DNA from: Candidatus Nomurabacteria bacterium
GTDB lineage: Bacteria; Patescibacteriota; Minisyncoccia; Phycocordibacterales; UBA9973
Assembly (NCBI GenBank): GCA_026395965.1
Contig: JAPLXS010000006.1
Span: 118,683 to 182,682, forward strand
DNA length: 64,000 nucleotides
Direction: 5' to 3'
Positions 1,477-62,988 of the stretch are shown in pieces. The notes beneath the pieces were generated by a model. The model saw only the letters and a list, made by a program, of their open reading frames with translations. It searched no databases and was not told the DNA's origin. A program made the translations under genes and the position numbers. The stretch's first letter is position 1. The number at the start of each line of letters is the position of its first letter.

Positions 1477-1482
1477 ATTTAT

Positions 1483-1518
1483 TACGGTTTTTAGACGTCC
1501 AACGTCTAAAAACCGTAA
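1483..1518. repeat. perfect palindrome ttacggtttttagacgtccaacgtctaaaaaccgtaa (AGACGT-CCA-ACGTCT core)
   Basis: Self-complementary 17-bp arms. The core is related to the TAGACGTCCGACA palindromes elsewhere in the window. Confidence 0.7.
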
Positions 1519-2844: not shown

Positions 2845-2878
2845 ATTTTAGGGGTCCAACCCCTAAAAAAGGGGTCGT
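2845..2878. repeat. hairpin element ttttaggggtCCAacccctaaaa (GGGGTCCAACCCC family)
   Basis: Perfect 10-bp stem with a CCA loop in the divergent intergenic region. The same unit is duplicated in inverted orientation at 4312-4349. Confidence 0.65.
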
Positions 2879-4311: not shown

Positions 4312-4349
4312 TAGGGGTCCAACCCCTACGTTAGGGGTTGGACCCCTAA
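4312..4349. repeat. double hairpin taggggtccaaccccta-cg-ttaggggttggaccccta
   Basis: Two inverted copies of the GGGGTCCAACCCC hairpin form a 38-bp perfect palindrome upstream of the 3493..4251 gene. Confidence 0.65.
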
Positions 4350-6224: not shown

Positions 6225-6350
6225 ACAGTATTGACACTATGTGCGATAAAAGTATATACTTCATTAGTAACTAGCCATCAGGGACAAATTCCTCTTAGGA
6301 AAAGCGAAAGCTACCTGTATGCGCTGACCGCCCCGTAAGGGGCGGTTTTC
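6225..6350 (+). ncRNA. candidate small RNA / structured 3' UTR
   Basis: Promoter-like TTGACA-17nt-ATATAC at 6231-6259. About 85 nt downstream there is a strong terminator (accgccccgtaaggggcggttttctttt) at 6324-6350. No ORF. Confidence 0.3.
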
Positions 6351-6355
6351 TTTTA

Positions 6356-6901
6356 TTAGTCTGAAATAGTTATTGAAATCTTTTTTGAAACTAGGTGATA
6401 GATATTCTTAATATTTTCATTTGCTGGATTTTCATTATTAAATCTTACAACTCCTGCAACAGCATCAGCTACACGAAGAGCAGGATAACCCTCGTCATTC
6501 CCTGTTTTAAGTTTCTTAACAGATATACCTTTATCTCGTAAAATTTTCTTAAATTTTCTTTCGTAAGTTTTATTCTTTTTTCCATCAATAATTAAATTTG
6601 TAATATTTTTTTCAATAATCAAATGTTCCAAGGCATACTCATATGCTGTATTGCTTTTAAATGGATTCTTTATAAAAGCAATTTTGATAGAAAATTCATA
6701 TTTACATATTTCTTCAATAAATTTTTGCCTAACAGCCCAAGTGCTATGAGACCAGTGGAAGTGTTTAATCTTTAATTTTTTTTCTGTTTCAATAACAGCT
6801 GTTTGAATAATATCTAATTTATTTATTTCAAGATAAACTAAAGCAATTGAAGATTTGCCGTCTTGTTTGTTTATTCCGGATTCATCTATAAAAATATACA
6901 T
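6356..6901 (-). CDS. DUF3800 family protein
   Basis: N-terminal IFIDESG and C-terminal RVADAVAG motifs are characteristic of DUF3800. Confidence 0.5.
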   Translation of the reverse strand: MYIFIDESGINKQDGKSSIALVYLEINKLDIIQTAVIETEKKLKIKHFHWSHSTWAVRQKFIEEICKYEFSIKIAFIKNPFKSNTAYEYALEHLIIEKNITNLIIDGKKNKTYERKFKKILRDKGISVKKLKTGNDEGYPALRVADAVAGVVRFNNENPANENIKNIYHLVSKKISITISD

Positions 6902-15895: not shown

Positions 15896-16957
15896 TTATA
15901 CTAAATAATCCTTACTTGAAATACCTCTATCTTCAAACTCTTCTTTCATCATTAAAACAACTAAATCTTTAAATTTAATATTTGTATCCCAGTTTAGTTT
16001 CTCTTTTGCTTTTGTGCTATCACCCAAAAGTATATCTACTTCAGATGGTCTGTAATATGTGGGGTCGATACTCACCAACACTTTTCCAGATTTTTCGTCT
16101 ATACCCTCTTCATTTAAACCTTCGCCTCTCCATACTATTTTATAGCCCACAAGCGAAGCAGCCTCTTCTACAAACTCTCTCACTGTATGAGTCTCTCCTG
16201 TCGATATAACATAATCATCTGGGGTGTCTTGCTGCAACATGAGCCACATAGCCTCTACGTAGTCTTTTGCATAACCCCAGTCTCTCTTTGCTTCTAGATT
16301 TCCTAGAAATATCTTTTCTTTTTTACCAAGTTTTATATCGGCCAGACCTTCTACTATTTTTTTGGTTACAAAGGTTCTACCTCGTCTTGGGGACTCATGA
16401 TTAAAAAGTATTCCATTACAAATAAACATACCATATGAATCACGATAATTATTACATATCATATGTGAAAAAACTTTGGCACAACCATATGGACTTTGTG
16501 GATTAAATGGAGTTTTTTCACTCTGAGGAACTTCTGATACTTTTCCAAACATTTCACTAGAACCTGCTTGATAGAATTTTATTTTAGGATTGGCTTCTTT
16601 TATTACATCAAGCATGCGAAGAGTTCCAAGTGCGTCCACATTTGCAGTATATTCTGGAATATCAAAACTTACTCTCACATGACTCTGTGCTCCAAGATTG
16701 TATACCTCCTCTGGATTACTTAGTTTTATTACTCTTAAAATACTATTTGAGTCAGAAAGATCACCATAATGAAGTATTAGATTTTTATTGTCGGTATGGG
16801 GGTCTTGATATATTTTTTCCAATCTTTCGGTATTAAAACTTGATGACCGTCTTATCATTCCGTGAACTTCATACCCTTTTTCTAAAAGTAATTCTGCTAG
16901 ATATGAACCATCCTGACCTGTGATACCTATTATTAGTGCTCGTTTTTTTGTTTTCAT
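15896..16957 (-). CDS. gmd: GDP-mannose 4,6-dehydratase
   Basis: [27 protein letters not shown] and full-length Gmd family conservation. Confidence 0.9.
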
Positions 16958-17001
16958 AATTTATTATGGTTTATTTATTAATTACTATTATCGAAAAATA
17001 T

Positions 17002-17622
17002 TTATCGCCAGCTTTCTGGCAATACTATATCTCCAACAGAATCAGAAATAATACCAGCGAACTGACTTTCTTTCAAAACTCCTTCGCGAATCTTTTTAAC
17101 AAAAGAAGCGATCTTTTTTAATTCTATTGTGTTTTTTTCATATGGACTAATAACAACTACAGGTAAATTTAATTCTTCTATTACTATTTTTATTGGTTCT
17201 ACTAAATCAGAGTCATTGGAAATAACAATAGCCATATCATAAAGACCTTTATATCCATCATTTATTAAATGGGATGCTATATTAACATCTGTTCCTTTCT
17301 CTTCTGTTTTTATAACCTTTGTATATCCTTTTTCTTCAGCATTCTTCATCAAAATAGAATGAGTTAAAAAAGTCCCTTTTATAATTTCAACATTGGGTAA
17401 AGTTTTTAAAGCACGAAGATACACTTGTTGTCTATTTGGCTTGTCATAATCAGAATCATTTTCTCTTATTTTTACCAGAGCTGTAAAATATTTTATTTTT
17501 GAAATTTCATGATTTGGGAAAAGTAAACAAGATAATTTATTGATATTAAGCCATTTATATTTACTATTTTTAAAACAACCATAATATAGATTAAATCCGT
17601 CTATGTATACGTGGAGTCTCAT
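17002..17622 (-). CDS. NYN/PIN-like domain protein
   Basis: MRLHVYIDGFNLYYG is an NYN-type N-terminal motif. The acidic residues are conserved. Confidence 0.5.
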   Translation of the reverse strand: MRLHVYIDGFNLYYGCFKNSKYKWLNINKLSCLLFPNHEISKIKYFTALVKIRENDSDYDKPNRQQVYLRALKTLPNVEIIKGTFLTHSILMKNAEEKGYTKVIKTEEKGTDVNIASHLINDGYKGLYDMAIVISNDSDLVEPIKIVIEELNLPVVVISPYEKNTIELKKIASFVKKIREGVLKESQFAGIISDSVGDIVLPESWR

Positions 17623-17855: not shown

Positions 17856-20070
<2,215 letters not shown>

Positions 20071-21922: not shown

Positions 21923-22026
21923 AATGTTTTTATAATTGTATACACGTTTAAATTAATTTCGACTAATCTCTGGGTACGACTAATAATAATGTACTCAAAG
22001 AAAAAAATTAATGTGTGTGTATTTAA

Positions 22027-22106
22027 TAAGAATTAAGAATTAGGAATTAATAATTAGGAATTGATAAACAACTCAGAATTAATAATTAATAAAAATTAAT
22101 AATTAT
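22027..22106. repeat. (GAATTAR)n heptanucleotide tandem array
   Basis: taagaattaagaattaggaattaataattaggaattga...aattaataattaataaaaattaataatta. Confidence 0.7.
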
Positions 22107-22432
22107 CTTTTACTAATCTCTAAATAACAGAACTCTAGACCATGACCTCTTTCTCTATCAAAAAAAGTTGCAATGGTTTTAAAGAAATAATATTTAGAAT
22201 TGTAAACTAAACTAAATAACTCTGCCTGTCCTTACCCTTCTAAAGAATTTCTTACGAAAGTAAAGAAAAGACGAGACAAGCATATCTGCCTTGTCGACAG
22301 GGCCGATACCACATCTTGAATCGAGTATCGATATAGATTATTCTTTTGCGCTCCTCTATCAAAGCAGCACGAGAATAAAAAATAAAAACAAAAGAAACAA
22401 AACGGATCTGACCAGAGAGAACTCAATTGAGA

Positions 22433-22458
22433 AATTAAGAATTAGGAATTAGGAATCC
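22433..22458. repeat. (GAATTAR)n heptanucleotide array
   Basis: aattaagaattaggaattaggaatcc. Confidence 0.7.
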
Positions 22459-22697
22459 ACAAAGGACCACTAATTAAGAATTCAAAATAAATAATTCCGG
22501 CTACAAGCTATTTGGTATTAACAACTTATAGTATTAAATTTTCAATGATCTTCTCTTCCCAAATGTACTTATATAAAACAAGAACATAGGGATACTATAT
22601 ACTACCACATCTAGCAATAAAATACCAGGGGTAATACACATAAATATTATATATGGAGTCATTTAAATATGCAACATATATGACCCAATTACGGATT

Positions 22698-22724
22698 AAA
22701 AATTAGGAATTAAGAATTAGAAAT
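22698..22724. repeat. (GAATTAR)n heptanucleotide array
   Basis: aaattaggaattaagaattagaaatac. Confidence 0.7.
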
Positions 22725-22826
22725 ACGAGCATACAATGAGGCCGTAGTGGGACTTGAGGGTGATACTCAGCTATACCCCTGTTTTGTGATTACATATGGA
22801 TTAAATATCCACCTAGACATTCATTA

Positions 22827-23839: not shown

Positions 23840-23875
23840 AAATTAATAATTAGGAATTAGGAATTAAGAATTGAA
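23840..23875. repeat. (GAATTAR)n heptanucleotide array
   Basis: aaattaataattaggaattaggaattaagaattgaa. Confidence 0.7.
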
Positions 23876-23936
23876 TACAGAAATAATTATAAAATAATTG
23901 AAAATTTGGAATTTTAAATACGAAACACAGGTTCAT

Positions 23937-23986
23937 TTTTTAGACGTCGGATATCTATTAGTAAACAGGTGTCCGACGTCTAAAAT
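23937..23986. repeat. TAGACGTCCGACA-family long palindrome
   Basis: tttagacgtcgga-tatctattagtaaacaggtg-tccgacgtctaaa. Confidence 0.7.
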
Positions 23987-24000
23987 TGAGCTCCTGATCA

Positions 24001-24033
24001 CATTCTTAATTGTTAATTCTTAATTTGTAATTG
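24001..24033. repeat. (GAATTAR)n heptanucleotide array (reverse orientation)
   Basis: cattcttaattgttaattcttaatttgtaattg. Confidence 0.65.
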
Positions 24034-24280
24034 ACCTTAAGTGTGGATAACTTTTACATTAATATAATCCCTAGATGAACAACACCCGAAGCCAATTTTG
24101 ATGTTGGAAGTCTTAAGATTTTAATAGATGGATATGCTATAATGCATACACAAATTGTGATCCAAATTGAGATGGTTTTAAGACAAATTACTGAGTGTTT
24201 TTTAGATTACTAAATTAAATATTATTAACTTAATTAACAAAAGATAGGACCCCACTTACCGAGGAAATATCCCAAGAGAA

Positions 24281-26518
24281 ATGGCAAAAAAAGATAAAGA
24301 AAAAGAAGATGTTGAGAGCACATCCAAACAAGGAAATAGGAAGAATAAAAATATTAAGAAAGTAGAAATGAGAGAAGAGATTCGCATGAGTATTTGGGGT
24401 ATAACTTTTATGTTTCTCGGTCTTTTGATAACCTTATCTGTTTTCAAAATGGCTGGTCCTGTGGGCGATTTTATTTACGATAAATTGAGTGCATTCTTTG
24501 GGCTTGGGTACTTTCTCCTACCTGTACTTCTAGTAGTGATAGGATATTCTTTTTTGAAAAAAGAAAGACCACAAGTTGCAAAAATTCACGCTATCTTTGG
24601 TCTCGCTACACTACTCTCTACACTAGGAATAATGGACCTCGCAGCCAATGGAAAAGAGGCATCGGTCAATATAACTTTTGGTGGGTATCTAGGTAGTATT
24701 GTCGCATGGCCATTCTTGAAACTTTTCGGAGTATATGCAGGGATACTTTTGCTTGGAGCAATACTCATTACCTCTCTTATTATCTTGTGTGACGAGAGAC
24801 CAAACTTGGTAGAACTATTTAAAAAGTTTTGGAGTTTTTTGAAGAGAGATATTCGTACACCAAAAATCGATAATGAAGAAGGGGAAGAAAATTACGAATT
24901 AGAAGAAAATAAAATAGAGACAAAAGAATCAGCAGTAAAAACAAATGTAGTAGAATACGATGAGAACCCCGTAGAAGAAAAACAAGAAGGTCGCGCTTCA
25001 AAGGACACTGCGCGACATGATTCTGCAGAATCAGATATGAAGGTAAAGAAATTTACTACTGACTACATACCTCCCCCAATGTCTCTCTTAGAAAAAGATA
25101 AGGGTAAGCCAAACACAGGAGACATGAAAGGCAACATGAATATAATACAGAGAACTCTCCTCACCTTCGGTGTATCCGTAGAAATGGATGAAGTAACTGT
25201 CGGACCAACTGTTACTCGCTACGCAATGAAACCTGCACAAGGAGTAAAACTCTCACGCATAGTAGGACTTCAAAATGAACTAGCACTAGCACTCTCTGCA
25301 CGTACTATACGTATCGAAGCACCTATCCCTGGAAAGTCACTTGTGGGTATCGAAATACCAAACAAAGTAAAATCTATGGTTGGACTCGCTACACTTCTAT
25401 CTGATGATTTATTCCAAAACTCTGCAAAGCCACTCACTGTCGCACTCGGACGTGGACTATCTGGAAAGTCAGTATTTGGAAACATAGCAAAAATGCCACA
25501 CTTGCTAGTAGCAGGAACAACTGGTTCTGGTAAGTCTGTAACAATACACTCAATCATCACTTCCCTACTCTACAAAAATGGACCAGAAGATTTGAGACTA
25601 ATACTAGTGGATCCAAAAAGAGTAGAACTAACTTTGTATAACAAAATCCCCCACTTACTCACTCCAGTTATTACTGACCCAAAGAAAACAATCTTGGCTC
25701 TAAAGTGGGCAGCAAAAGAAATGGATAGACGCTACGACTTACTCCAAGCTCATTCTGTGCAAAATATAGAATCATACCAATCTAATGTTTATGGAAAAGC
25801 AAAGAAAGATGAGGTTATAGAAAAACTCCCTTATATAGTTATCTTTATCGATGAACTTGCAGATATAATGCAGTCATACCCTAGAGAGCTAGAAAGTGCT
25901 ATCGTTCGTCTTGCTCAGATGTCTCGTGCTGTGGGAATACACTTAATACTATCTACACAGAGACCATCTGTGAATGTCATCACAGGACTAATCAAGGCCA
26001 ATATTCCTACTCGTGTAGCTCTACAGGTGTCATCACAGATAGACTCCCGAACTATTTTAGACCATGGTGGTGCCGAACTACTAGGTGCTGGAGACATGCT
26101 CTACTCTTGTGCAGAAACTCCTCACCCAGAGAGAATACAGAGTGCATTTATATCTGAAGAAGAAGTTAAAAAAGTGGTAGAATACTTACGTAAGGCTTAT
26201 ATAGATGAAATACCTAGTACAATAGAACTATCTGGAAGTATAGATAAAGGAGGAAACAATCTTTTCAATGACAGTATCGGTGGAGATGATGGAGATGATG
26301 ACCTATATGAAGATGCAAGAATGACAGTTATAGAGGCAGGCAAAGCATCTACTTCATACCTACAGAGAAAACTTGGTATCGGATACGCTCGCGCAGCTAA
26401 ACTCATAGATATGCTAGAAGAACGTCATGTAATAGGAGCTGGTAATGGAGCAAAACCAAGAGATGTACTAGAAAAAGGAGTGAATAATACAGATGATATG
26501 ATTATGGGTAAGGAATAA
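24281..26518 (+). CDS. ftsK: DNA translocase FtsK/SpoIIIE
   Basis: N-terminal TM helices, Walker A LLVAGTTGSGKS, and a C-terminal gamma wHTH domain (YLQRKLGIGYARAAKLIDMLEE). Confidence 0.9.
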   Translation: MAKKDKEKEDVESTSKQGNRKNKNIKKVEMREEIRMSIWGITFMFLGLLITLSVFKMAGPVGDFIYDKLSAFFGLGYFLLPVLLVVIGYSFLKKERPQVAKIHAIFGLATLLSTLGIMDLAANGKEASVNITFGGYLGSIVAWPFLKLFGVYAGILLLGAILITSLIILCDERPNLVELFKKFWSFLKRDIRTPKIDNEEGEENYELEENKIETKESAVKTNVVEYDENPVEEKQEGRASKDTARHDSAESDMKVKKFTTDYIPPPMSLLEKDKGKPNTGDMKGNMNIIQRTLLTFGVSVEMDEVTVGPTVTRYAMKPAQGVKLSRIVGLQNELALALSARTIRIEAPIPGKSLVGIEIPNKVKSMVGLATLLSDDLFQNSAKPLTVALGRGLSGKSVFGNIAKMPHLLVAGTTGSGKSVTIHSIITSLLYKNGPEDLRLILVDPKRVELTLYNKIPHLLTPVITDPKKTILALKWAAKEMDRRYDLLQAHSVQNIESYQSNVYGKAKKDEVIEKLPYIVIFIDELADIMQSYPRELESAIVRLAQMSRAVGIHLILSTQRPSVNVITGLIKANIPTRVALQVSSQIDSRTILDHGGAELLGAGDMLYSCAETPHPERIQSAFISEEEVKKVVEYLRKAYIDEIPSTIELSGSIDKGGNNLFNDSIGGDDGDDDLYEDARMTVIEAGKASTSYLQRKLGIGYARAAKLIDMLEERHVIGAGNGAKPRDVLEKGVNNTDDMIMGKE

Positions 26519-26582
26519 TTAGGAATTAGGAATTTAGAAACAATAAGAGGGGTAAAAAATTAGGAATTAAAATACAATAAGA
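26515..26582. repeat. two (GAATTAR)n heptanucleotide arrays abutting the ftsK stop
   Basis: aataattaggaattaggaatttag ... aaattaggaattaaaatac. The ftsK TAA stop lies at the array edge. Confidence 0.65.
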
Positions 26583-26596
26583 ATACAGATACAATT

Positions 26597-26992
26597 ATGC
26601 AATTAAAAACTATAAAAAATAAAAATATGAAATGGTGGCTAGGAACAATATCCTGCGTAACACTATTTTCTATTATTATGATTTTTGGTTATGAAAAAAT
26701 GTTCTTTATGTTCCATGGAGTAAAAATAGAAGCTAGTATGGTACAAAGTGTTGACTCTCCCCTAACGATAGTGTCTGGCAAAGCAGAGAAAGCTATATAC
26801 TTATCTCTAAACGGTAGAGAAATATTTATAGATAAAAAAGGAAACTTTTCTGAATCGATAGCAGTGCTTCCTGGATTTTCTGTAATCACACTTAGCGCTG
26901 AAGATAAATTTGGAAAGACCGCAGAGAAAAAGTTTGAAATGGTTAAAGAAGAAAGTGTGCCAGCAGTAGCATTAGCAGCAACTAGTAACTAG
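26597..26992 (+). CDS. hypothetical membrane-anchored protein (131 aa)
   Basis: Single N-terminal TM helix. No recognisable domain. Confidence 0.3.
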   Translation: MQLKTIKNKNMKWWLGTISCVTLFSIIMIFGYEKMFFMFHGVKIEASMVQSVDSPLTIVSGKAEKAIYLSLNGREIFIDKKGNFSESIAVLPGFSVITLSAEDKFGKTAEKKFEMVKEESVPAVALAATSN

Positions 26993-27000
26993 AAATAAGG

Positions 27001-27130
27001 AAACTAAATTTAAATTTAAAATATATCTTTCCAAAGGGTACGAAAATTTTTTACTAAAAATTTTCTGAAGTGTTCGTTTCGACAAACTCACAACCCCCTT
27101 TGATAAGAATATTTTAAATTTAAATTTAGT
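27001..27130. repeat. ~130-bp element bounded by perfect 23-bp inverted repeats (aactaaatttaaatttaaaatat)
   Basis: 27001-27023 is the exact reverse complement of 27108-27130. The core contains a nested palindrome gaaaatttttTACTaaaaattttc. It lies immediately upstream of recA. Confidence 0.65.
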
Positions 27131-27159
27131 TAGTAATTTATTAATTAACATAATCATAT

Positions 27160-28242
27160 ATGATAAAAAAAGCAAAAAAGGCTCCAAAAGAAACAGGTGG
27201 TGCAATAGAAGATACAATTAGATCAATCCAAACAAAGTTTGGAGAAGGTGCAATTATGAAACTTGGAGATGCTCCAAAGGTAGACATAGATGTCATTCCT
27301 ACTGGCTCAATAGGGCTAGATATGGCTCTAGGAGTAGGTGGAGTACCAAGAGGCCGTATGATAGAAATATATGGACCGGAATCATCTGGTAAGACTACCC
27401 TAGCACTACACATAGTAGCTGAAGCTCAAAAGAAAGGTGGTGTATGTGCTTATATAGATGCTGAACACGCAATGGATCCAGACTATGCTGCTAAACTAGG
27501 GGTAAACATAAAAGACCTGCTTATATCTCAACCAGACAATGGTGAACAAGGATTAGAGATTACAGAGAGTCTTATTCGCTCTGGCAAGATAGATGTTATC
27601 GTTATCGACTCAGTAGCAGCATTAACACCCAAAGATGAAATAGAGGGAGATATGGGTCAATCACACGTAGGTAAACAAGCACGTCTAATGTCTCAAGCTC
27701 TTAGAAAGCTTACTGCTATAGTTGCCCACTCAAAAACTGTAGTTATATTTATCAACCAGATTCGTATGCAAATAGGAGTCATGTTTGGTAATCCTGAAAC
27801 AACTCCAGGAGGAAAGGCATTGAAGTTTTATACTACTATCCGTCTAGATATTCGCCGTATTGCTCAGATAAAAAAAGGTGAAGAAGTAGTAGGAAGTAGA
27901 ACAAGAGTAAAAGTGGTAAAAAATAAAGTCGCTGCCCCATTTAAACAGACAGAGTTTGATATACTTTACGGTGAAGGAATTTCTCGAGAAGGAGAAATAA
28001 TGGCTCTAGGCGAAAAACTAGGAGTTATCAGTAAATCAAGTGGAGCTATATACACTTATCTTGGAACTGCAAAACAAAAAGAAAAAGGACCGGTAGAAGA
28101 AATAAAACTAGGTCGTGGATATGATGCAGCTCGTACTTTTCTTCGTGGAAACAAAAAACTCTCTGATGAAATACTAAAAGAAGTAAGATTGAGATTTGGA
28201 GAGATACAAAGTACTGGTGGAAGTTCAGGAGATGAAGAATAA
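27160..28242 (+). CDS. recA: recombinase RecA
   Basis: Walker [11 protein letters not shown]1/L2 loops, and full-length RecA conservation. Confidence 0.95.
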
Positions 28243-28277
28243 GAAGAATTAAGAATTTATAATTACGAATTAGGAAT
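28243..28277. repeat. heptanucleotide array immediately after the recA stop
   Basis: gaattaagaatttataattacgaattaggaatac. Confidence 0.65.
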
Positions 28278-28288
28278 ACAGAGTGGGT

Positions 28289-28322
28289 TGCCGAAGGCAA
28301 CCCACTCTGTATTTATTTGTGT
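28289..28322 (+). terminator. rho-independent terminator of recA
   Basis: acagagtgggttgccgaaggcaacccactctgtatttatttg. Confidence 0.7.
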
Positions 28323-28442
28323 CCCCTGTTTTAATTTATTAAATATCTATACTGATTCACTAAAATAACCTATGGTAAAATCAATAGATTGGCTTACATA
28401 TGCCATAGTAAATACTTAGCATTTAAAAAATATATTGAATAA

Positions 28443-28491
28443 AATAAACTAACTCACTTTACGCTATAGCGTAAAGTGAGTTAGTTTATTT
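28443..28491. repeat. palindrome with ACGCTATAGCGT core
   Basis: aataaactaactcactttacgctatagcgtaaagtgagttagtttatt. The core is shared with 54048-54095. Confidence 0.6.
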
Positions 28492-28629
28492 ATAAAATTA
28501 TTATATGCTAGAAATCTAACGATTCATAGGCTCAATGACCTCTAATATACCCATTAAATATTGCCTTGAGAATAGCAGTACATTCTGTTATAATCGACTT
28601 ATTATTAAATCGCTAGCAACTAATTATAT

Positions 28630-29208
28630 ATGCTTGAATACAGTGAAATTTGTACAAAAAAAATAATAATCTACGAGAATGAGCCATGTGAAGTTATGGA
28701 AAACCATGTAGCCCGTACTCAACAAAGAAAGCCTCAAAATCAGGTAAAGCTAAAGAGTTTACTATCTGGACGTACTTGGAATACAGTATTTCATGCATCA
28801 GACAAGGCAGAGGAAGCAGATATTAGTAAAAAAGAAGTTAAATTCTTATATGCTAGTAAAGATGAATTTTGGTTCTCAAGCCCTACTGATCCAAAAGACC
28901 GTTTTACAATTACAGCAAAAATCATTGGCGATGCATCTAAATTCTTAAAAGCCAACGAAAATGCAACTGCAGTAGTCTGGGATAATGATGGAGAGGAACA
29001 AATCATAAAGATATCTACTCCTATCAAAATGGAATTTGTAATCAAAGACTGTCCACCATCAATAAAAGGAAGTACTGCTTCAGGTGGAGGTAAACTTGCA
29101 ACACTTGAAAATGATGTAAAAGTTCAAGTTCCCTTCTTTATAGAAACTGGCGACAAGGTTATAGTAAATACTGAAACTGGTGAATATGTAGAAAGAGTAC
29201 AGAAATAA
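28630..29208 (+). CDS. efp: elongation factor P
   Basis: N-terminal KOW-like motif (QQRKPQNQVKLKSLLSG) and the C-terminal motif VPFFIETGDKVIVNTETGEYVERV. Confidence 0.8.
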   Translation: MLEYSEICTKKIIIYENEPCEVMENHVARTQQRKPQNQVKLKSLLSGRTWNTVFHASDKAEEADISKKEVKFLYASKDEFWFSSPTDPKDRFTITAKIIGDASKFLKANENATAVVWDNDGEEQIIKISTPIKMEFVIKDCPPSIKGSTASGGGKLATLENDVKVQVPFFIETGDKVIVNTETGEYVERVQK

Positions 29209-29270
29209 AAGTTAGTAACTAGGATTTAGAGACTAGGTACTAGCAAATACAAAATATACAGTTGGGATTA

Positions 29271-29308
29271 CCCATTCAAAGGCCGTCGGAAGACGGCCTT
29301 TGAAATTT
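29271..29308 (+). terminator. rho-independent terminator of efp
   Basis: ttcaaaggccgtcggaagacggcctttgaaattt. Confidence 0.7.
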
Positions 29309-29395
29309 ACAGTGATTAATCTTTCTTTACCGGTCTAAACCTATGGGTTTGATTTGGTAATCTATAAAATATTAAAATACCTGACGAAAAACAAT

Positions 29396-29425
29396 AAAAA
29401 CCACCCGGATGGGTGGTTTTTATAT
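29396..29425 (-). terminator. terminator of rplK (bidirectional hairpin)
   Basis: aaaaaccacccggatgggtggtttttat. Confidence 0.65.
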
Positions 29426-29432
29426 TTGAGTA

Positions 29433-29861
29433 TTAGTCTACTATTGTTATTCCTGCTGAGCGAGCTGAACCTTCTATTATTTTCATTGCTCCTTCTATGT
29501 TTTTAGCATTAAGGTCGGGCATTTTCTTAATAGCGATCTCTTTCACTTGAGCTTTTGTGATAGTACCTACTTTTGAAACGTTTGGTTTTCCTGAACCTTT
29601 CTCTACTCCTGCTGCTTTTAATATTAGTCCAGCAACTGGAGGAGTTTTGATTTTGATATCATAAGTTCTATCTTCAAAAACAGTAATAAGAACTCCAACT
29701 GTTTCCCCTGCCATAGCGGCAGTCATTGCGTTAAACTTTTGACAGAATTCGGCAATGTTTACTCCGGCTTGTCCTAGTGCAGGTCCAAGTGGTGGAGCTG
29801 GTGTAGCCTTTGCAGCTGCGATTTGTAATTTTACTTTCTTTATAATTTTTTTTGCTGCCAT
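29433..29861 (-). CDS. rplK: 50S ribosomal protein L11
   Basis: [36 protein letters not shown] is a canonical L11 N-terminus. Confidence 0.95.
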
Positions 29862-29869
29862 ATAAATAG

Positions 29870-29912
29870 ATAATTAAGAATTAATAATTAGGAATTAAGA
29901 ATCTAGTGATTA
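29870..29912. repeat. (GAATTAR)n heptanucleotide array in the rplK 5' leader
   Basis: taattaagaattaataattaggaattaagaatctag. Confidence 0.65.
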
Positions 29913-30116
29913 TTTTCTAGAAAATACTTAATAATTGAAGCTTAGCGTAACGGGTGTAATATAACATAATTGGGCTCATAATACAATGTAGTAAGGAGAA
30001 AGTAGCAGGTAGTAAGGATAAGTGTATTTTAATTAGTTTAAGATTTTTAAAAATCGATTAAATAGTATTAGATGCGAGGCAAAGATGGGCATTATGAATA
30101 TTTTATAATTGAATCA

Positions 30117-30163
30117 AAATAGACGTCCGACATCTGTTGGTACAGGTGTCGGACGTCTATTAA
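30117..30163. repeat. TAGACGTCCGACA-family long palindrome
   Basis: aatagacgtccgacatctg-ttggta-caggtgtcggacgtctatt. Confidence 0.7.
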
Positions 30164-30185
30164 GATGATGCTATTTTACTAATAG

Positions 30186-30311
30186 TAAAATTAAAAAAAT
30201 GGCATTAGATGCGAGGCGCAGGCGAGGATTGCGACCAAAATGTATATTGATACATTGCGGAAGCAACCGGAGCCTGCAACAAAGCAGATAATGCCATTTT
30301 TTTAATTTTAA
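30186..30311. repeat. ~125-bp element bounded by perfect 21-bp inverted repeats (aaaattaaaaaaatggcatta); right arm covers the nusG stop codon
   Basis: 30187-30207 is the reverse complement of 30289-30309. A degenerate partial copy of its left end (attagatgcgaggc) lies at 30065-30100. Confidence 0.65.
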
Positions 30312-30859
30312 AGTTTTTTGATTTGTAGGAAGTCTAGCTCAACTGGAGTCTCACGTCCGAACATTGAAACAAGGACTTTTATCTTACCGCGTTCACGGTC
30401 TACATCACTAACCTTGCCTTCAAGGTCTTTAAATGGACCATCTGCAATACGAACCATCTCTCCTACTTCTGTATCTATCTGGTGTTTATTTTTTGAATCA
30501 ACTTTTTCCATTCTACTGAAAAGTTCATCAACTTCATTTTTGGCCAATGGAACTGGATTTACCCCTGCTCCTACGAAACCTGTTACGCGAGGAGTATTTC
30601 TAACTACGTACCATGAGTTGTCGTCTACTATCATATCTACAAGTACATAACCTGGGTAAACTTTTTCCTCAACTTCAACACGCTTTCCAGCTTTTATTTT
30701 TATTTTCTTTTCAACCGGAACAACAACAGAAAATATCTTATCGTTCATTCCAAGTGAATCTATACGCTGTTTCAAATTACGCATAACTGCATTCTCATAA
30801 CCAGCATAAGTATGAATTGCGTACCAATTTCTTTCTCCTCTTAATTCTTGTTTTGCCAT
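30308..30859 (-). CDS. nusG: transcription termination/antitermination factor NusG
   Basis: NGN domain (WYAIHTYAGYENAV) and a C-terminal KOW (GKRVEV...GYVLV). Confidence 0.9.
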   Translation of the reverse strand: MAKQELRGERNWYAIHTYAGYENAVMRNLKQRIDSLGMNDKIFSVVVPVEKKIKIKAGKRVEVEEKVYPGYVLVDMIVDDNSWYVVRNTPRVTGFVGAGVNPVPLAKNEVDELFSRMEKVDSKNKHQIDTEVGEMVRIADGPFKDLEGKVSDVDRERGKIKVLVSMFGRETPVELDFLQIKKL

Positions 30860-30892
30860 AATATATTAAAAATCTGCCTACCGGCAGGAAGG

Positions 30893-31078
30893 TTATCTTG
30901 TTAATAATAATTTAAGACCTTGTCCAAATATAAAATCTAGAAAACCTAGATAGTACGCAACTATAGCAGATACTGCTAAAACAGAAATAGTAAAATATAT
31001 TGTTTGTTTTTGAGTTGGCCAGGTTACATTTTTACCTTCTGCTATTACTTCTTTTATGTATTCTTTAGTTTTATTCAT
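30893..31078 (-). CDS. secE: preprotein translocase subunit SecE
   Basis: 61 aa with a single C-terminal TM helix. Conserved position upstream of nusG. Confidence 0.7.
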   Translation of the reverse strand: MNKTKEYIKEVIAEGKNVTWPTQKQTIYFTISVLAVSAIVAYYLGFLDFIFGQGLKLLLTR

Positions 31079-31289
31079 CCCATCAGAGATAGTTTCGCCA
31101 AAGTTGAAACGTATCTAATTAAATATTGTTAATAATATAAGCTTTATAATTGTTTTTACTATCTATGTAGAAAATAAATCACACATCTCTAACAGGGACT
31201 TGTATATTTTCTTAGTTCTAGTAAAAAACACCCCGGGGGTGTATTAAATATATATTAACACTTTTATTGAGATAGCGCAATGTAGAACA

Positions 31290-31337
31290 AAATAGACGTC
31301 CGACACCTGCCGTAGCAGATGTCGGACGTCTATTTTT
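31290..31337. repeat. TAGACGTCCGACA-family long palindrome (followed by T-tract)
   Basis: aatagacgtccgacacctgc-cgtag-cagatgtcggacgtctattttt. Confidence 0.7.
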
Positions 31338-43856: not shown

Positions 43857-46800
43857 TTATAAAACTGGCAGAGCAGGAGTTTCAGTAGTATCTGCTGGTG
43901 GTGGAACTACGGCAGCAGGAGTTTCTACTGCTGGTGGTACTACTTCGACAGGAGGAATATTTGTATCCCCAGGAACGACAACTGAAGCGTCAACAGGAGG
44001 TGTATCTGAAGTTGTTGTATCTGTTATTGATGTTGCACCTGTTGTTGCAGATGAGCCTGATGTTGATGGAATTAATTGTTTTAATTTAATAAGATCAGTC
44101 TTGTTGATACACTCATACGAACCATCTGGGTCAGTAAGACAAATCTCTCCAGTAAAGATGCGAGTTATCTTATTTGCCGCATTAGATAACCATGCAAAGA
44201 GACTATCTCTCCATGTATTTTGTATAGTCATATCAGCTATTCCTGTTATTTTTAGATTCATCTCTCTTATCGCTTCTACTATGATAGGTGTCATCTGCGC
44301 GTAGTACACGGACTTGTACCCTTGTGAATCTGTTGCTACGAGTTGAGGAAAATATTGCTCCAAATCTTGAGCGAGGAATCCAACTTGTTGTGGAGATGCT
44401 GGATTTTCCAACCAGTTATAAGTAACTGTTTTTACTTTCAACAAGTTATCTAAAGTATTATCAGATAGATTTATAATATTTGTCTTTAGTCTTTCATCTG
44501 AAGTACAAGCGATACCTGTACCAGTAGTGATAGTACACTGAGTAGAAGAAGAGCCATTTATACGAGTAGTATTTATCGGTCTATTGGCAGAACCTACTAT
44601 AAACTGATTTGCGGCTGTATTGGTTGCGTATGCACCTATTGCTATACTGTTTGAAAAGCTTCCTGCGCTCGTGGCATGACCAATTAGGATAGAAGTATCG
44701 GCGAATGTAGTAGTGTCATTGTATACAGCTGTATTGTTGACTGTATTATTGTATCCTGAATTTCTACCAATAAATATTGAGTTGGCAGCATTTGTAGCAT
44801 TGTACCCTGCACTACTTCCAAAGAAATTTGAGTTAATAGCGTTAGCTGCACCATACCCTGACAATAAACCAAAAAAGTTTGAGTTATTGGCTGAAGTAGC
44901 ACCACTTCCGGAATTTTTTCCAAAGAAGTTTGAATATGAAGCAGTAGTTGCACCACTTCCTGCATTCGGACCAAAGAAGTTTGAGTTAATAGCTGAGGTT
45001 GCATTATACCCTGTAGCTCCTCCAAAGAAATTAGAGTTGTTAGCTGAGGTTGCACCATATCCTGAAAGTGCCCCAAAGAAATTAGAAGAAAAAGCACTAG
45101 TTGCATTTTGTCCGGCGCCGTTTCCCATAAAGATGGTACCATTAGCAGATGCTGTACCTTGGTTGCCACCAATAAAAATTGAGTTGATCTGTCTGTTAAC
45201 AGAACCTACCATAAACTGATTTGCGGCTGTATTGGTTGCGTATGCACCTATTGCAATACTGTTTGAGTACCCTCCTGTACCAGTACCATGGCCTAGGAGG
45301 ATTGAAGTATTGGCAAAAGTAGTTACATCGTCATATACAGAAGTATTAACAACGGTATCATTTAAGCCTGAATTTGTACCTATAAATATTGAGTTGGCTG
45401 CACTAGTTGCACTATGTCCTGCATCTGTTCCAAAGAAATTTGAATAAGCAGCAGAACCAGCTTGATTTCCTGCGTTTAATCCGAAGAAGTTTGAGTTGTT
45501 AGCGGAATTAGCACTACTTCCTGCATATGATCCAAAGAAATTTGAATCATGGGCATTGACAGAACTACTTCCTGCACTTGTTCCAAAGAAGCTTGATTGA
45601 TTCGCATAAGTTGCACCATTTCCTGCATTAGAACCAAAGAAATTTGAATTCGAAGCACCGGTTGCTAGTACTCCTGTATTAACTCCAAAGAAGTTTGATG
45701 CATAAGCACCAGTAGCACCCCATCCCGCCCAATACCCGAAAAAGTTTGAGCTATTAGCATTGGTTGCATTTATTCCCGATTTTACACCAAAGAAGTTTGA
45801 GCCATAGGCACTAGTTGCTGATAATCCCGCATCAGCACCAAAGAAGTTTGATGCACTAGCACCAGTAGCAAGCTTTCCTGCATTAGAACCAAAGAAGTTT
45901 GAACTATTAGAACTGGTTGCACCATATCCTGCACTATGACCAAAGAAGTTTGAGTTATTTGCACTGGTTGCACCATTTCCTGCATCTGTACCAAAGAAGT
46001 TTGAATATGGAGCAGAACTAGCATGATACCCCGCAAGATAACCAAAGAAGTTGGAAGCATCAGAATTTGTGGCTCCGTCACCTGCATTTGATCCAAAAAA
46101 GTTTGAGCTATTAGCATTGGTTGCGCCATTTCCTGCATATGATCCAAAGAAATTTGAACCACTTGCATTGGTTGCACTATTCCCTGCATTAATTCCAAAG
46201 AAGTTTGAAACATTGGCAAGAGAAGCATTAAGTCCTGCATTAACTCCAAAGAAGTTTGAATTAGATGCGCCAGTTGCACCACTTCCTGCATCTGTTCCAA
46301 AGAAGTTTGAATTATCTGCACTAGTTGCATTTTTACCCGCACTATTACCCATAAAGATTGTATTTTGAACAGATGCTGTGCCTTGATTGCCTCCAATAAA
46401 AATTGAGTTAATTGGTCTGTTAGCAGAACCTACCATAAACTGATTGGAATATGTATTGGTTGTATACGCACCTAATGCAATACTATTTGAGTACCCTCCA
46501 GTGCTAGTACTATGACCAATGAGGATGGAGGTGTCGGCGAAGGTAGTAGTCTCATTGTACAATGCAGTATTGTTTACAAGATCATTATTACCTGAATTAG
46601 TACCTATAAATATTGAGTTGGCAGCATTGGTTGCAGAATAACCCGCAGAAGAACCAAAGAAATTTGAATTAAATGCAAAAGTAGCTGTGCTTCCTGCACT
46701 TGGTCCAAAGAAGTTTGACGCAAGGGCATTTGTTGCGTTTGTTCCCGCAGAAGAACCGAAGAAATTTGAGCTACTGGCCTCAGTTGCACCATGACCTGAA

Positions 46801-49493
46801 TCTGTTCCAAAGAAGTTTGAGCCATTTGCATTTGTGGCACCATCACCTGCATTTGCTCCAAAGAAATTAGAATAATAAGCATTATAAGCATTGAGTCCTG
46901 AGCTTGATCCAAAGAAGTTGGAGTTATTTGCAGCAGTTGCATTTTCACCTGCACTTACGCCAAAAAAGTTTGAGGCAGTGGCGACAGTTGCATTTCTTCC
47001 TGCACTTAATCCAAAGAAGTTTGATTGGTTAGATAAACTTGCTCCATCTCCGGCATAACTTCCAAAAAAGTTTGAGTTGTTGGCATCAGTTGCATTTTGA
47101 CCAGAAAATGTACCAAAGAAGTTTGAGCTGTAAGCATTAGTTGCACTTATTCCTGAAAAATTTCCAAAGAAGTTTGAATTATTGGCACCACTAGCATTTT
47201 GACCAGAAAATGTACCAAAGAAGTTTGAGTGGTCGGCTGCATTTGCACCGTCACCTGCATTTTGTCCAAAGAAGTTAGAGTTATTGGCAGCAGTTGCATT
47301 TAGTCCAGAATTAAGTCCTAAAAAGTTTGAATAAGAAGCATCGGTAGCACTAAGTCCTGCATTCGCTCCCGAGAAGTTTGAATCATTTGCTTTTGTTGCA
47401 CCGTTTCCTGCACTTGGTCCAAAGAAGTTGGATGAGTAAGCTGAATTTGCACCTAAACCTGTGCTTGATCCAAAGAAATTTGAGTTGTTGGCACTAGTTG
47501 CACCATTTCCTGCGTCTGTACCAAAGAAGTTTGAGTTTGAGGCGGAAGCTGCATTCAATCCTGCGTTATTTCCCATAAAGATTGTACCAATTACTGATGC
47601 TGTGCCTTTGTTTCCGCCAATAAAAATAGAATTTATAGGTCTGTTATCAGAACCTACCACAAACTGATTGGGTGCTGTGTTGGTTGAGTATGCACCTATT
47701 GCAATACTATTTGAGAAACCACCAGTATTTGTATTGTGACCAAGGAGAATGGATGTATCAGCGAAGGTGGTAGTATCATCATACACTGCAGTATTGTTTA
47801 CTGTATCATTGTATCCTGAATTTTTACCAATAAATATTGAATTGGCGGCATTGATTGCATGATTTCCCGCATAATAACCAAAGAAATTTGAATCATAAGA
47901 ATTGTTTAAATTATTGGAATCTCCTCTTCCTGCATTTGATCCAAAAAAGTTTGAATTAGAAGCATTATTAGAATAAATTCCTGAGGAAGGTCCAAAGAAG
48001 TTTGAACTACTAGCACCATTTGCACTATTACCTGCACTATACCCAAAGAAGTTTGAGTAAGTAGAATTTATAGCTCCATATCCTGCTGTTTGTCCAAAAA
48101 AGTTTGAATAAGATGCACCTTCAGCAATTTTACCAGCTCTATCTCCAAAAAAATTTGAACCATCAAGACCTAAAATTCCCTCCCCAGCACTTCTACCAAA
48201 AAGGTTTGAACTAATTATATTTACTCCACCATTACCTGCATCTCTTCCAAAGAAGTTAGATTCGTAAGCATATATAGCTCCTAGGCCAGCACCTTCTCCA
48301 AAAAAATTTGAGTTGTAAGCACCAATTCCACCGCTTCCTGCATTTAGTCCAAAGAAGTTTGAACTTGTAGCATCAGTTGCATTCAATCCTGCGTTTGTTC
48401 CAAAGAAGTTTGAGTTAGCTGCGTTAGTAGCACTACTTCCTGCGCTTGTTCCAAAGAAATTGGAGTTAGCAGCAGCAGTTGCACTATTACCTGCGCTTGG
48501 TCCAAAGAAATTGGAGCTATTAGCACCAGTTGCACCAAACCCTGAATTGTCTCCAAAGAAGTTTGAATTATCTGCATTAGTTGCACCACTTCCTGCACTT
48601 AATCCAAAGAAATTTGATTTAGCAGCATTGGTTGCACCATCTCCTGCATTTGATCCAAAGAAGTTGGAACTACTCGCATTGGTTGCATTTGATCCAGATG
48701 CATAGCCTAAGAAGTTTGAGAAGGAGGCAGAAGCTGCATTCAATCCCGCATTTGTTCCAAAGAAGTTTGAATTAGAGGCGCCAGTGGCACCACTTCCAGC
48801 ATTATTTCCAAAGAAGTTTGACGAGAAGGCATTGGTTCCATTCAACCCAGCTCCATAACCTAAGAAGTTTGAATTATCAGCATTGGTCGCACCACTTCCT
48901 GCATTTTTTCCAAAGAAGTTTGAGTAAGTAGCAGACGAGCTTGATCCTGAGCCTGTTAGTCCTGTAGAAAAAAGTGATGTGGTGTTTTGTACTGTAATAG
49001 GTGAAGACACTACTGTCCCCCATGCTATATCTGTACCGTTGGTAGTGAGAAATTGACCCGCAATACCAGAGACAGATGGGATAACAACTTTCCAATCTGA
49101 AGATAAAGTAAGACAACGATTTTGATTGGCATCCAAAGAAGAGTCAGTGACAGTTGTTGTACAAGCTGGGTACCCTCCGCGGTTTGTAACTAGACGATAA
49201 GTTGCTGTCTGATTTCCTGCTGTGCCAGAGTCGGTATCTATAACAGTTGCTATCATTCCTAGAGATCTTCTTTCACTTGTGATAGCAAGTAGAGCTGTCA
49301 TATCTGCTACTTGCATGTGTCCTCCTTGGAGGTAGTTTGTATCAGCGATAGCAAAGTAACCGTTCCCTACTCCGAGAGTAGTAGGTACAGCTAGACCTCC
49401 GTTTTGAGAATAAGCTCGATATGAAAATGAACCAACCATAAGTAGGACGGTTGTAATAAAAAATATTTTTGTTTTAAGGTCTATTATTTTCAT
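43857..49493 (-). CDS. giant (1878 aa) secreted tail-fibre-like repeat protein with C-terminal Peptidase_S74 intramolecular chaperone domain
   Basis: Signal peptide. N-terminal fibre-like motif GQFLTTNGTDIAWGTV. More than 90 tandem 15-aa repeats (SNFFGxxAGxGATxA). Four higher-order ~100-aa modules (SIFIG.NSG...FADTSIL.GH...NQF.VGS.NRPINSIFIGGN). TSDERLKTNI...YNW...GF.AQDLEQ..P.LV matches the S74 autoproteolytic chaperone. A Pro/Thr/Val-rich tail follows. Confidence 0.7.
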   Translation of the reverse strand: MKIIDLKTKIFFITTVLLMVGSFSYRAYSQNGGLAVPTTLGVGNGYFAIADTNYLQGGHMQVADMTALLAITSERRSLGMIATVIDTDSGTAGNQTATYRLVTNRGGYPACTTTVTDSSLDANQNRCLTLSSDWKVVIPSVSGIAGQFLTTNGTDIAWGTVVSSPITVQNTTSLFSTGLTGSGSSSSATYSNFFGKNAGSGATNADNSNFLGYGAGLNGTNAFSSNFFGNNAGSGATGASNSNFFGTNAGLNAASASFSNFLGYASGSNATNASSSNFFGSNAGDGATNAAKSNFFGLSAGSGATNADNSNFFGDNSGFGATGANSSNFFGPSAGNSATAAANSNFFGTSAGSSATNAANSNFFGTNAGLNATDATSSNFFGLNAGSGGIGAYNSNFFGEGAGLGAIYAYESNFFGRDAGNGGVNIISSNLFGRSAGEGILGLDGSNFFGDRAGKIAEGASYSNFFGQTAGYGAINSTYSNFFGYSAGNSANGASSSNFFGPSSGIYSNNASNSNFFGSNAGRGDSNNLNNSYDSNFFGYYAGNHAINAANSIFIGKNSGYNDTVNNTAVYDDTTTFADTSILLGHNTNTGGFSNSIAIGAYSTNTAPNQFVVGSDNRPINSIFIGGNKGTASVIGTIFMGNNAGLNAASASNSNFFGTDAGNGATSANNSNFFGSSTGLGANSAYSSNFFGPSAGNGATKANDSNFSGANAGLSATDASYSNFLGLNSGLNATAANNSNFFGQNAGDGANAADHSNFFGTFSGQNASGANNSNFFGNFSGISATNAYSSNFFGTFSGQNATDANNSNFFGSYAGDGASLSNQSNFFGLSAGRNATVATASNFFGVSAGENATAANNSNFFGSSSGLNAYNAYYSNFFGANAGDGATNANGSNFFGTDSGHGATEASSSNFFGSSAGTNATNALASNFFGPSAGSTATFAFNSNFFGSSAGYSATNAANSIFIGTNSGNNDLVNNTALYNETTTFADTSILIGHSTSTGGYSNSIALGAYTTNTYSNQFMVGSANRPINSIFIGGNQGTASVQNTIFMGNSAGKNATSADNSNFFGTDAGSGATGASNSNFFGVNAGLNASLANVSNFFGINAGNSATNASGSNFFGSYAGNGATNANSSNFFGSNAGDGATNSDASNFFGYLAGYHASSAPYSNFFGTDAGNGATSANNSNFFGHSAGYGATSSNSSNFFGSNAGKLATGASASNFFGADAGLSATSAYGSNFFGVKSGINATNANSSNFFGYWAGWGATGAYASNFFGVNTGVLATGASNSNFFGSNAGNGATYANQSSFFGTSAGSSSVNAHDSNFFGSYAGSSANSANNSNFFGLNAGNQAGSAAYSNFFGTDAGHSATSAANSIFIGTNSGLNDTVVNTSVYDDVTTFANTSILLGHGTGTGGYSNSIAIGAYATNTAANQFMVGSVNRQINSIFIGGNQGTASANGTIFMGNGAGQNATSAFSSNFFGALSGYGATSANNSNFFGGATGYNATSAINSNFFGPNAGSGATTASYSNFFGKNSGSGATSANNSNFFGLLSGYGAANAINSNFFGSSAGYNATNAANSIFIGRNSGYNNTVNNTAVYNDTTTFADTSILIGHATSAGSFSNSIAIGAYATNTAANQFIVGSANRPINTTRINGSSSTQCTITTGTGIACTSDERLKTNIINLSDNTLDNLLKVKTVTYNWLENPASPQQVGFLAQDLEQYFPQLVATDSQGYKSVYYAQMTPIIVEAIREMNLKITGIADMTIQNTWRDSLFAWLSNAANKITRIFTGEICLTDPDGSYECINKTDLIKLKQLIPSTSGSSATTGATSITDTTTSDTPPVDASVVVPGDTNIPPVEVVPPAVETPAAVVPPPADTTETPALPVL
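44700..48950. repeat. intragenic 45-bp tandem repeat region (ccaaagaagtttga... units) encoding SNFFG repeats
   Basis: The recurring motifs ccaaagaagtttgag / ccaaagaaatttga are visible throughout the giant gene. Confidence 0.75.
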
Positions 49494-54047: not shown

Positions 54048-54095
54048 ACCACTCTAACCCAACTTACGCTATAGCGTAAGTTGGGTTAGAGTGGT
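54048..54095. repeat. palindrome with ACGCTATAGCGT core
   Basis: aaccactctaacccaacttacgctatagcgtaagttgggttagagtggtgg. Confidence 0.6.
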
Positions 54096-62920: not shown

Positions 62921-62988
62921 AATTAGTAAAAAGGTCATATTTATAAAATATGACCTTTTTACTAAAACCAGACGTTGGACGTCTATTT
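62921..62988. repeat. palindromic terminator region containing short AGACGT-TGG-ACGTCT palindrome
   Basis: agtaaaaaggtcatat-ttataa-aatatgacctttttact, followed by ccagacgttggacgtctattt at 62967-62988. Confidence 0.6.

Follow-up and report, generated by a model that had tools for sequence, protein, structure and literature searches.

Bacteria of the candidate phyla radiation (CPR, Patescibacteria) have tiny, streamlined genomes that are considered poor in mobile DNA. Classical repetitive extragenic palindromes (REPs) occur in tens to hundreds of copies per genome. In Proteobacteria, REPs, bacterial interspersed mosaic elements (BIMEs) and REP doublets forming hairpins (REPINs) are associated with a REP-associated tyrosine transposase (RAYT, or TnpA-REP), as described for Escherichia coli, Pseudomonas and Stenotrophomonas (PMC2817692, PMC3116915, PMC3333891); E. 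coli TnpA-REP (PMC3333891) serves here as the analogue for the mechanism, and REPINs have been described from Pseudomonas (PMC3116915). A further group, the CGTC-tagged REPs (Di Nocera et al. 2013, PMC3733652), is characterised by an unpaired terminal CGTC, stems of 8–9 bp starting with AT, loops of 4–5 nt and usually a 3′ tail CCA, and no dedicated transposase has been found for it (PMC3733652). Here, we analyse three long palindromes in a 64,000-nucleotide stretch of DNA (hereafter the window) from a Candidatus Nomurabacteria bacterium, a reduced-genome CPR bacterium (contig JAPLXS010000006.1, positions 118,683–182,682). The three palindromes are probably (at a probability of roughly 0.8) non-autonomous repeats of REP/REPIN type, belonging to a family that is spread across the Patescibacteria and mobilised by a RAYT as single-stranded DNA (ssDNA) hairpins.

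A preliminary description made from the letters of the window reported the three palindromes as intergenic, with arms of about 20 bp, and their positions, arm lengths and intergenic placement are all confirmed (Table 1). They share the core AGACGTCSGAYA...TRTCSGACGTCT, which can be written AGACGTC-S-GA-Y-A ... T-R-TC-S-GACGTCT, and have the flanks AAAT/TTTT-AGACGTC. The half-site, the 13-mer TAGACGTCCGACA, is present 10 times in the window at up to 2 mismatches, compared with 0.34 occurrences expected, and none of 100 shuffled sequences reaches 10, indicating that the shared core does not arise by chance. In the window, these half-sites have a density of about one per 6–8 kb and are restricted to intergenic hairpins; furthermore, 8 of the 9 GACGTC (AatII-type) sites fall within long or short repeat elements. 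When folded as ssDNA, the three copies form stems of 19–21 bp with energies of −15 to −23 kcal/mol (z = −6.5 to −12.9), specifically −15.3 kcal/mol (z −7.3) for copy 1, −21.1 kcal/mol (z −9.2) for copy 2, and −21.6/−23.4 kcal/mol for copy 3. The loop, previously given as 5–20 nt, is about 10 nt long in copy 1 and about 4 nt long in the other two. In sequence, copy 1 has diverged, with two G·T pairs and with GTCGGA/TCCGAC in place of the GTCCGA/TCGGAC of copies 2 and 3, a compensatory swap by which the pairing is kept. Copies 2 and 3 display an internal asymmetry, CATCTG...CAGGTG, which gives a G·T pair on one strand and a C·A mismatch on the other; because this asymmetry is conserved, copy 3 can be recognised as copy 2 in the opposite orientation.

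The window also contains five short relatives of these palindromes, which the preliminary description overlooked. The short hairpin TAGNNGTCCAACNNCTA, identified by k-mer over-representation and pattern search, is located at 1492, 2849, 4312, 4332 and 62969 (5 occurrences versus 0.03 expected). In these short units the centre GTCCAAC is constant and the stem covaries, AGAC/GTCT versus AGGG/CCCT. Two of the units form an inverted pair, and doublets are likewise present in L071, L076 and L080 (loci from other genomes and metagenomes are denoted by L and a number). The long arm TAGACGTCCGACA and the short unit TAGACGTCCAAC differ at one base across the first 12 nt, 16 of 18 positions agree between the left arm CCAGACGTCGGACATCTG of the long palindrome and CCAGACGTTGGACGTCTG, the short unit read in the TGG orientation, and L076 carries forms intermediate between the short unit and the long palindrome. 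In view of this arm identity and these intermediates, the sequences suggest that the long palindromes are inverted dimers of the short unit that would fold into one long hairpin. The ORFs (open reading frames) adjoining short units at 2022–2495, 2897–3379 and 3493–4251 have no Pfam match.

The family extends far beyond the window. The strict pattern AGACGTCSGAYA-N(4–30)-TRTCSGACGTCT, for which about one chance match is estimated in the 596-Gb genome collection, was found at 19 loci when one genome per species was considered, most of them labelled Paceibacterota, Patescibacteria, Nomurabacteria, Saccharibacteria or Jorgensenbacteria, and at 50 loci in a metagenome scan. A scan of a viral contig collection returned 0 matches and thus gave no hint that the family comes from phages. 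The covariation proposed as a check in the preliminary description is present: among 46 distinct hairpins, the S position that the pattern leaves free is G..C in 33 and C..G in 13, with no mismatched case, and the stems of the short units covary too. The G·T/C·A asymmetry reappears at the same stem position across distinct hairpins. Crude ORF calling around 64 non-redundant copies places 24 in co-directional, 7 in convergent and 3 in divergent spacers and about 17 within ORFs, while 13 are at contig ends, where the context is unclassified. Many of these copies are only 2–20 nt from neighbouring genes, and the orientation of the hairpin relative to transcription is mixed across loci; inserted repeats therefore fit better than a conserved cis-regulatory RNA. 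Searches of both repeat regions against Rfam, at the gathering threshold and at permissive E-values, yielded no family and only generic hairpin noise far below the thresholds, and when the core strings were looked for in full texts, only unrelated primers and constructs turned up. The motif reaches beyond the CPR, because the genome matches L012, L017 and L018 bear non-CPR labels and because the contig of L040, where hairpins of the family lie on either side of a more distantly related RAYT (1948–2780; ~23% identity), otherwise carries genes (panB, mltG-like, glycerophosphodiesterase) that do not look CPR-like. In three genomes, the short-loop form of the hairpin lies in frame within murD (L002 2650–2678, L022 492–520 and L066 1589–1617) and encodes PDVGHLMSDVW.

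In related loci, these hairpins flank a gene for a RAYT, the cognate enzyme that the preliminary description proposed to look for. Specifically, the long hairpin is present on both sides of an ORF of about 220–225 amino acids (aa) in L031, L047, L062 and L040, which are metagenome and genome loci, and the short unit or a stem variant of it is present on both sides of homologous genes in L071, L073, L076, L080 and L081. The stem of the flanking units is genome-specific, and the loop and centre are retained (Table 1). Furthermore, in two genomes the long palindrome and the RAYT gene are on one contig, with the palindrome after rplL in L009/L071 and after efp in L006/L080. The RAYT ORF passes the cutoff of Pfam Y1_Tnp PF01797 (25.9–27.1 bits, cutoff 23), matches NCBIfam NF047646 REP_Tyr_transpos with E-values of 1e-6 to 1e-9, and contains the invariant motifs YYH..NRG, NHFH (HUH; H87-F-H89) and Y147..N151..H155. 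A Foldseek search of the PDB with the AlphaFold (AF2) model of the RAYT gave 28 of 31 top matches, including ranks 1–28, to the TnpA proteins of IS608, ISDra2, IS200 and Sulfolobus (target template modelling (TM) score 0.5–0.65). The CPR RAYT is related to REP_Tyr_transpos but is a distinct clade. Its homologues number about 3000; the top matches that bear names are from Parcubacteria, Paceibacterota, Nomurabacteria and Zambryskibacteria, and several homologues are named 'REP element-mobilizing transposase RayT' (Joint Genome Institute, JGI). The five RAYT loci that were fetched (L071, L073, L076, L080 and L081) all share one neighbourhood, consisting of ftsK, a divergent 28x-aa gene, further genes that usually include peptidoglycan-binding proteins, the RAYT gene, genes for large proteins, and rplJ-rplL; where the fetched locus extends far enough, recA lies beyond ftsK.

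Several other features are associated with the RAYT gene or its position. A REP unit lies in frame within the variable loop of the RAYT gene in L080 (10171–10209) and L081 (10173–10207; translation KAPSGVGHPTGL), and peptides that look REP-derived, TDVQRL and DVGRL, are at the same position in other homologues. The RAYT-proximal units end in GG(A/T)GGTT(T/A)T(C/G)CAC(A), GGTTTATCCACA, which matches the DnaA-box consensus TTWTNCACA (L047, L071, L076, L073, L080, L031 and L033); the sole perfect TTATCCACA in the window is at 24042–24050, 56 nt from copy 1. In the window, a 94-nt direct repeat (16865–16958 and 17859–17952, 97% identical), which duplicates the 5′ end of a GDP-mannose dehydratase gene, surrounds an ORF with an NYN domain (17002–17622) where relatives carry the RAYT region, and looks like an insertion or rearrangement scar.

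The presence of the palindromes varies between relatives. L078/L079 represents a close relative, whose NusG falls in the 90%-identity cluster of the window's NusG and whose aligned DNA segments are 76–84% identical to the window. Its gene order is the same as that of the window across all three palindrome sites, and no long hairpin is present at any of them. In particular, the nusG-rplK spacer is 203 nt long in L078/L079 versus 446 nt in the window, the segment of about 240 nt that contains copy 2 being missing; the region upstream of ftsK aligns with the window only at its ends; and a different hairpin follows the SIMPL gene at the site of copy 3. The copy 1 site is also empty in the more distant relatives L071, L073 and L076. 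With all three orthologous sites empty of them in a close syntenic relative, the palindromes are elements gained or lost and not conserved regulators. These differences fit mobile or unstable repeats and, together with the hairpins that flank Y1/HUH transposase genes, support the earlier assignment to REP/BIME-type dispersed palindromes; annotating the three as conserved regulatory sites is unwarranted. Around copy 2, the DNA enclosed by a direct repeat that brackets it belongs to the ~240-nt segment missing from L078/L079. Directly after nusG, a separate 121-nt hairpin with A7/T7 flanks (30186–30306, − strand; −51.9 kcal/mol, z −9.8) is kept in L078/L079 and has no Rfam match; it could be a nusG terminator or an rplK leader.

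Observed here are the family of repeats, the covariation of its hairpins, their position around RAYT genes in relatives, and their gain and loss between relatives; on these the assignment to a RAYT-mobilised family builds. Catalysis, mobilisation and a RAYT in this genome we infer. The basic unit of the family would be a short hairpin with the constant GTCCAAC centre and a genome-specific stem, and the long form would have the core AGACGTC[C/G]GAC. By analogy with E. coli TnpA-REP and IS608 TnpA, a repeat exposed in ssDNA, for instance in the lagging-strand template, would fold into a hairpin that a RAYT dimer could recognise. The enzyme would then cleave beside the hairpin by means of an HUH-bound metal and the catalytic tyrosine, and its rejoining of the DNA could excise units, copy them or insert them in trans at intergenic sites. 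Some copies, once inserted, would probably act secondarily as terminators or as stabilisers of mRNA 3′ ends, an effect that is plausible for copy 3.

Several results weigh against this assignment. Most directly, no RAYT homologue was detected within the 64-kb window (tblastn; Pfam on 30 ORFs), which carries a Wzy_C/glycan cluster where relatives have the RAYT gene, and none of the homologues listed comes from the window's own source contig. Few copies were seen: the strict pattern gives 1–2 per reference genome, and the 64 kb of the window hold three long and five short units, all of them intergenic. The unpaired GTAG tag at the 5′ foot of proteobacterial REPs is absent from all 73 listed copies. 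The RAYT ORF scores only 27–36 bits against NF047646, far under the 80-bit equivalog cutoff, its AlphaFold model is of moderate confidence only (predicted local distance difference test, pLDDT, 59.6), and sequence and profile searches of the PDB found nothing. Finally, copy 2 is bracketed by a direct repeat of about 20 nt (D20; 30050–30093 versus 30187–30230) containing ATTAGATGCGAGGC, and the 'peel-and-paste' transposition of Y1 enzymes does not predict such a repeat.

Whether the RAYT and its REPs form a lineage-specific parasite can also be asked. It is unlikely, in our estimate, that the pair is instead ancient, vertically inherited, possibly domesticated and shared across much of the CPR radiation; compatible with this reading, GTCCAAC is invariant across genera, the RAYT gene is fixed between ftsK and rplJL, a REP lies in frame within the RAYT gene, and the RAYT-proximal units have a DnaA-box-like tail. 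These features could reflect a host role such as replication-coupled genome structuring or self-regulation.

We consider it quite improbable that the hairpins are host-selected RNA elements, that is, factor-independent terminators or mRNA 3′-end stabilisers, whose similarity would come from a shared RNA-binding or processing factor and not from mobility. The preliminary description had suggested a terminator role and had seen a T-tract after one palindrome. The T-tract is indeed present, after copy 3, and that copy scores as terminator-like on the − strand, the sense strand, just past the stop codon of its gene; copies 1 and 2, by contrast, fail the terminator scan. Even copy 3 is followed, 50 nt further on, by a canonical terminator (31228–31242). 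The position of copy 2 at the nusG/rplK operon boundary would suit an RNA element, as would that of hairpins in other genomes, which follow tuf, rplL, efp and rpsH and lie 2–20 nt from a start or stop codon. However, copy 1 is within a divergent promoter region, copies 2 and 3 have mixed orientation relative to transcription, about 17 of the 64 copies are within ORFs, the same sequences flank a transposase gene, and the close syntenic relative is without all three.

There is only a slight chance that the repeats are double-stranded DNA (dsDNA) binding sites (operators, or sites for a nucleoid or replication protein) of a DNA-binding protein conserved in the CPR. Conservation of the sequence over many lineages agrees with such a role, as do the DnaA-box-like tail of the RAYT-flanking copies and the perfect TTATCCACA near copy 1. 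However, arms of 19–21 bp far exceed the length of an operator, the sites differ between close relatives, and the window holds no excess of DnaA-box-like words. In addition, the stem of the short unit covaries while its non-palindromic CCA centre stays constant, which indicates a single-strand hairpin, and the conserved G·T/C·A asymmetry likewise speaks against a dsDNA site.

It is also very doubtful that another mobile element left the repeats behind or uses them as targets, be they ends of IS200/IS605 elements, miniature inverted-repeat transposable elements of another transposase, or DNA-uptake sequences paired as terminators: the fold matches of the Y1 protein are IS608/ISDra2 TnpA, a direct repeat flanks copy 2, and CPR bacteria are thought to depend on DNA uptake, yet the Y1 gene is syntenic in five genomes rather than multi-copy and mobile, the loci read contain no tnpB partner, no terminal inverted repeats were seen beyond the hairpin, and the half-sites, confined to intergenic hairpins, are far sparser than DNA-uptake sequences, which occur about once per kb. 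The loop TGGGAATCTTG shared by several copies, and their position a few nt from genes, first raised the idea of an RNA motif conserved in the CPR, which was dropped in view of the mixed orientation and the lack of conservation at orthologous sites. Neither by anatomy nor by density do integron attC, dif, parS or DNA-uptake sequences fit.

The window is ordinary chromosome (33% G+C) with recA, ftsK, efp, ribosomal protein and glycolysis genes, and a 10.6-kb Logan contig is identical to part of it. Its proteins have identical counterparts on a 333,080-bp contig of a metagenome-assembled genome labelled Candidatus Nomurabacteria bacterium. Two perfect palindromes of 48–50 nt (28442–28491 and 54048–54095) share the core CTAAC.CA.CTT(T)ACGCTA|TAGCGT(A)AAG.TG.GTTAG and may constitute a second palindrome family; the first of them also scores as terminator-like, and the ACTTACGCTATAGCGTAAGT palindromes do not recur in the other loci compared. 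AT-rich words with a 7-nt period, AATTAGG/AATTAAG (families D6, D7 and D9; for example TTAGGAATTAGGAATTAAGAATT), adjoin gene starts or stops in many spacers and are present in L078 too. A DUF3800-II RNA (6267–6329; Rfam RF02961, 49 bits) adjoins a DUF3800 protein gene (6356–6901), and a 1878-aa ORF (43857–49493) contains dozens of 51-nt (17-aa) tandem repeats with a higher-order period of 1224 nt.

Table 1. Repeat units of the hairpin family in the window, units flanking RAYT genes in other loci, and periodic words in spacers of the window
Feature	Position	Strand	Sequence	Context
Long palindrome, copy 1	23937..23986 (core 23941-23982)	.	AGACGTCGGATA...TGTCCGACGTCT (23942-23981)	Spacer between a divergent 284-aa gene and ftsK
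Long palindrome, copy 2	30117..30163 (core 30120-30159)	.	AATAGACGTCCGACATCTG-TTGGTA-CAGGTGTCGGACGTCTATT	nusG-rplK spacer
Long palindrome, copy 3	31290..31337 (core 31293-31332)	.		11 nt past the stop of the SIMPL/DUF541 gene; secE downstream
Short unit	1482..1518 (unit 1492-1508)	+	TAGAC-GTCCAAC-GTCTA	Within a 17-bp-stem hairpin, directly past the terminator of the PhoH-like gene
Short unit	2846..2868 (unit 2849-2865)	+	TTTTAGGG-GTCCAAC-CCCTAAAA	Loop same as in the unit at 1492, stem covarying
Inverted pair of short units	4312..4348	.	TAGGGGTCCAACCCCTA-CGT-TAGGGGTTGGACCCCTA	REPIN/BIME-like doublet, −20.3 kcal/mol
Short unit	62969..62985	-	TAGACGTCCAACGTCTG	Between the stop of the DsbB-like gene and a terminator hairpin
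RAYT-flanking unit	L071, L076		CAGAC-GTCCAAC-GTCTG	
RAYT-flanking unit	L080		ATTCGGAC-GTCCAAC-GTCCGAAT	
RAYT-flanking unit	L081		CGGGT-GTCCAAC-ACCCG	
RAYT-flanking unit	L073		CAGGTA-TCCGA-TACCTG	
7-nt-periodic words	21992-22106			
7-nt-periodic words	22419-22494			
7-nt-periodic words	22695-22741			
7-nt-periodic words	23841-23902			
7-nt-periodic words	26490-26580			
7-nt-periodic words	28234-28295			
7-nt-periodic words	29865-29926			

The literature searched holds no description of REP elements or of a REP-RAYT system in Patescibacteria or Parcubacteria, consistent with the statement in the preliminary description that no such family had been characterised for this kind of organism; a 2026 preprint goes no further than noting a match to the RAYT KEGG Orthology (KO) entry in an archaeon. 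REPs and RAYTs are well known, and RAYT genes are already annotated automatically in metagenome-assembled genomes of CPR bacteria, while the family in the CPR apparently has not been described. A widespread, syntenic REP-RAYT system in the CPR widens the range of such within-genome replicators to include a very large, uncultured section of the bacterial tree. Conservation of the hairpin centre between genera makes hairpins centred on GTCCAAC, and AGACGTCSGACA palindromes, a ready signature with which intergenic DNA of the CPR can be annotated and assembly break-points recognised, and because the stems covary with the enzyme and the loop is fixed, the system is a clean one for studying how RAYTs read hairpins.

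Compared with IS200/IS605 elements (IS608, ISDra2), the CPR system resembles them in the predicted TnpA fold, in hairpins of the same orientation on both sides of the gene and, by inference, in ssDNA chemistry; in contrast to them, the CPR gene keeps a conserved chromosomal neighbourhood, was not observed as multiple copies and has no tnpB, and the hairpins are dispersed far from it. With the CGTC-tagged REPs the family has in common a CGTC in or beside the palindrome, a CCA (in the tail there, in the loop here), intragenic copies and frequent head-to-head dimers, whereas the CPR repeats flank a RAYT gene, and their CGTC is base-paired within stems of 7–21 bp that close a 3-nt loop. The resemblance to the proteobacterial REPs covers short extragenic palindromes that form ssDNA hairpins, singly and in inverted pairs, that flank an apparently single-copy Y1/HUH transposase gene, that co-vary with the RAYT, that differ in position between relatives, and that often lie directly past stop codons. 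Unlike the species-specific REPs of Proteobacteria, the CPR units keep a 3-nt CCA loop in an invariant GTCCAAC centre across many lineages, and those proximal to the RAYT gene bear a GGTTWTSCAC(A) tail; the CPR RAYT itself, at about 220 aa and with an extra C-terminal helical region, differs from proteobacterial RAYTs and falls well under the NCBIfam equivalog cutoff. The hairpin centre invariant across genera, the syntenic RAYT, the DnaA-box-like tail, and the in-frame REP units in the RAYT gene and murD are the unusual traits of this CPR system.

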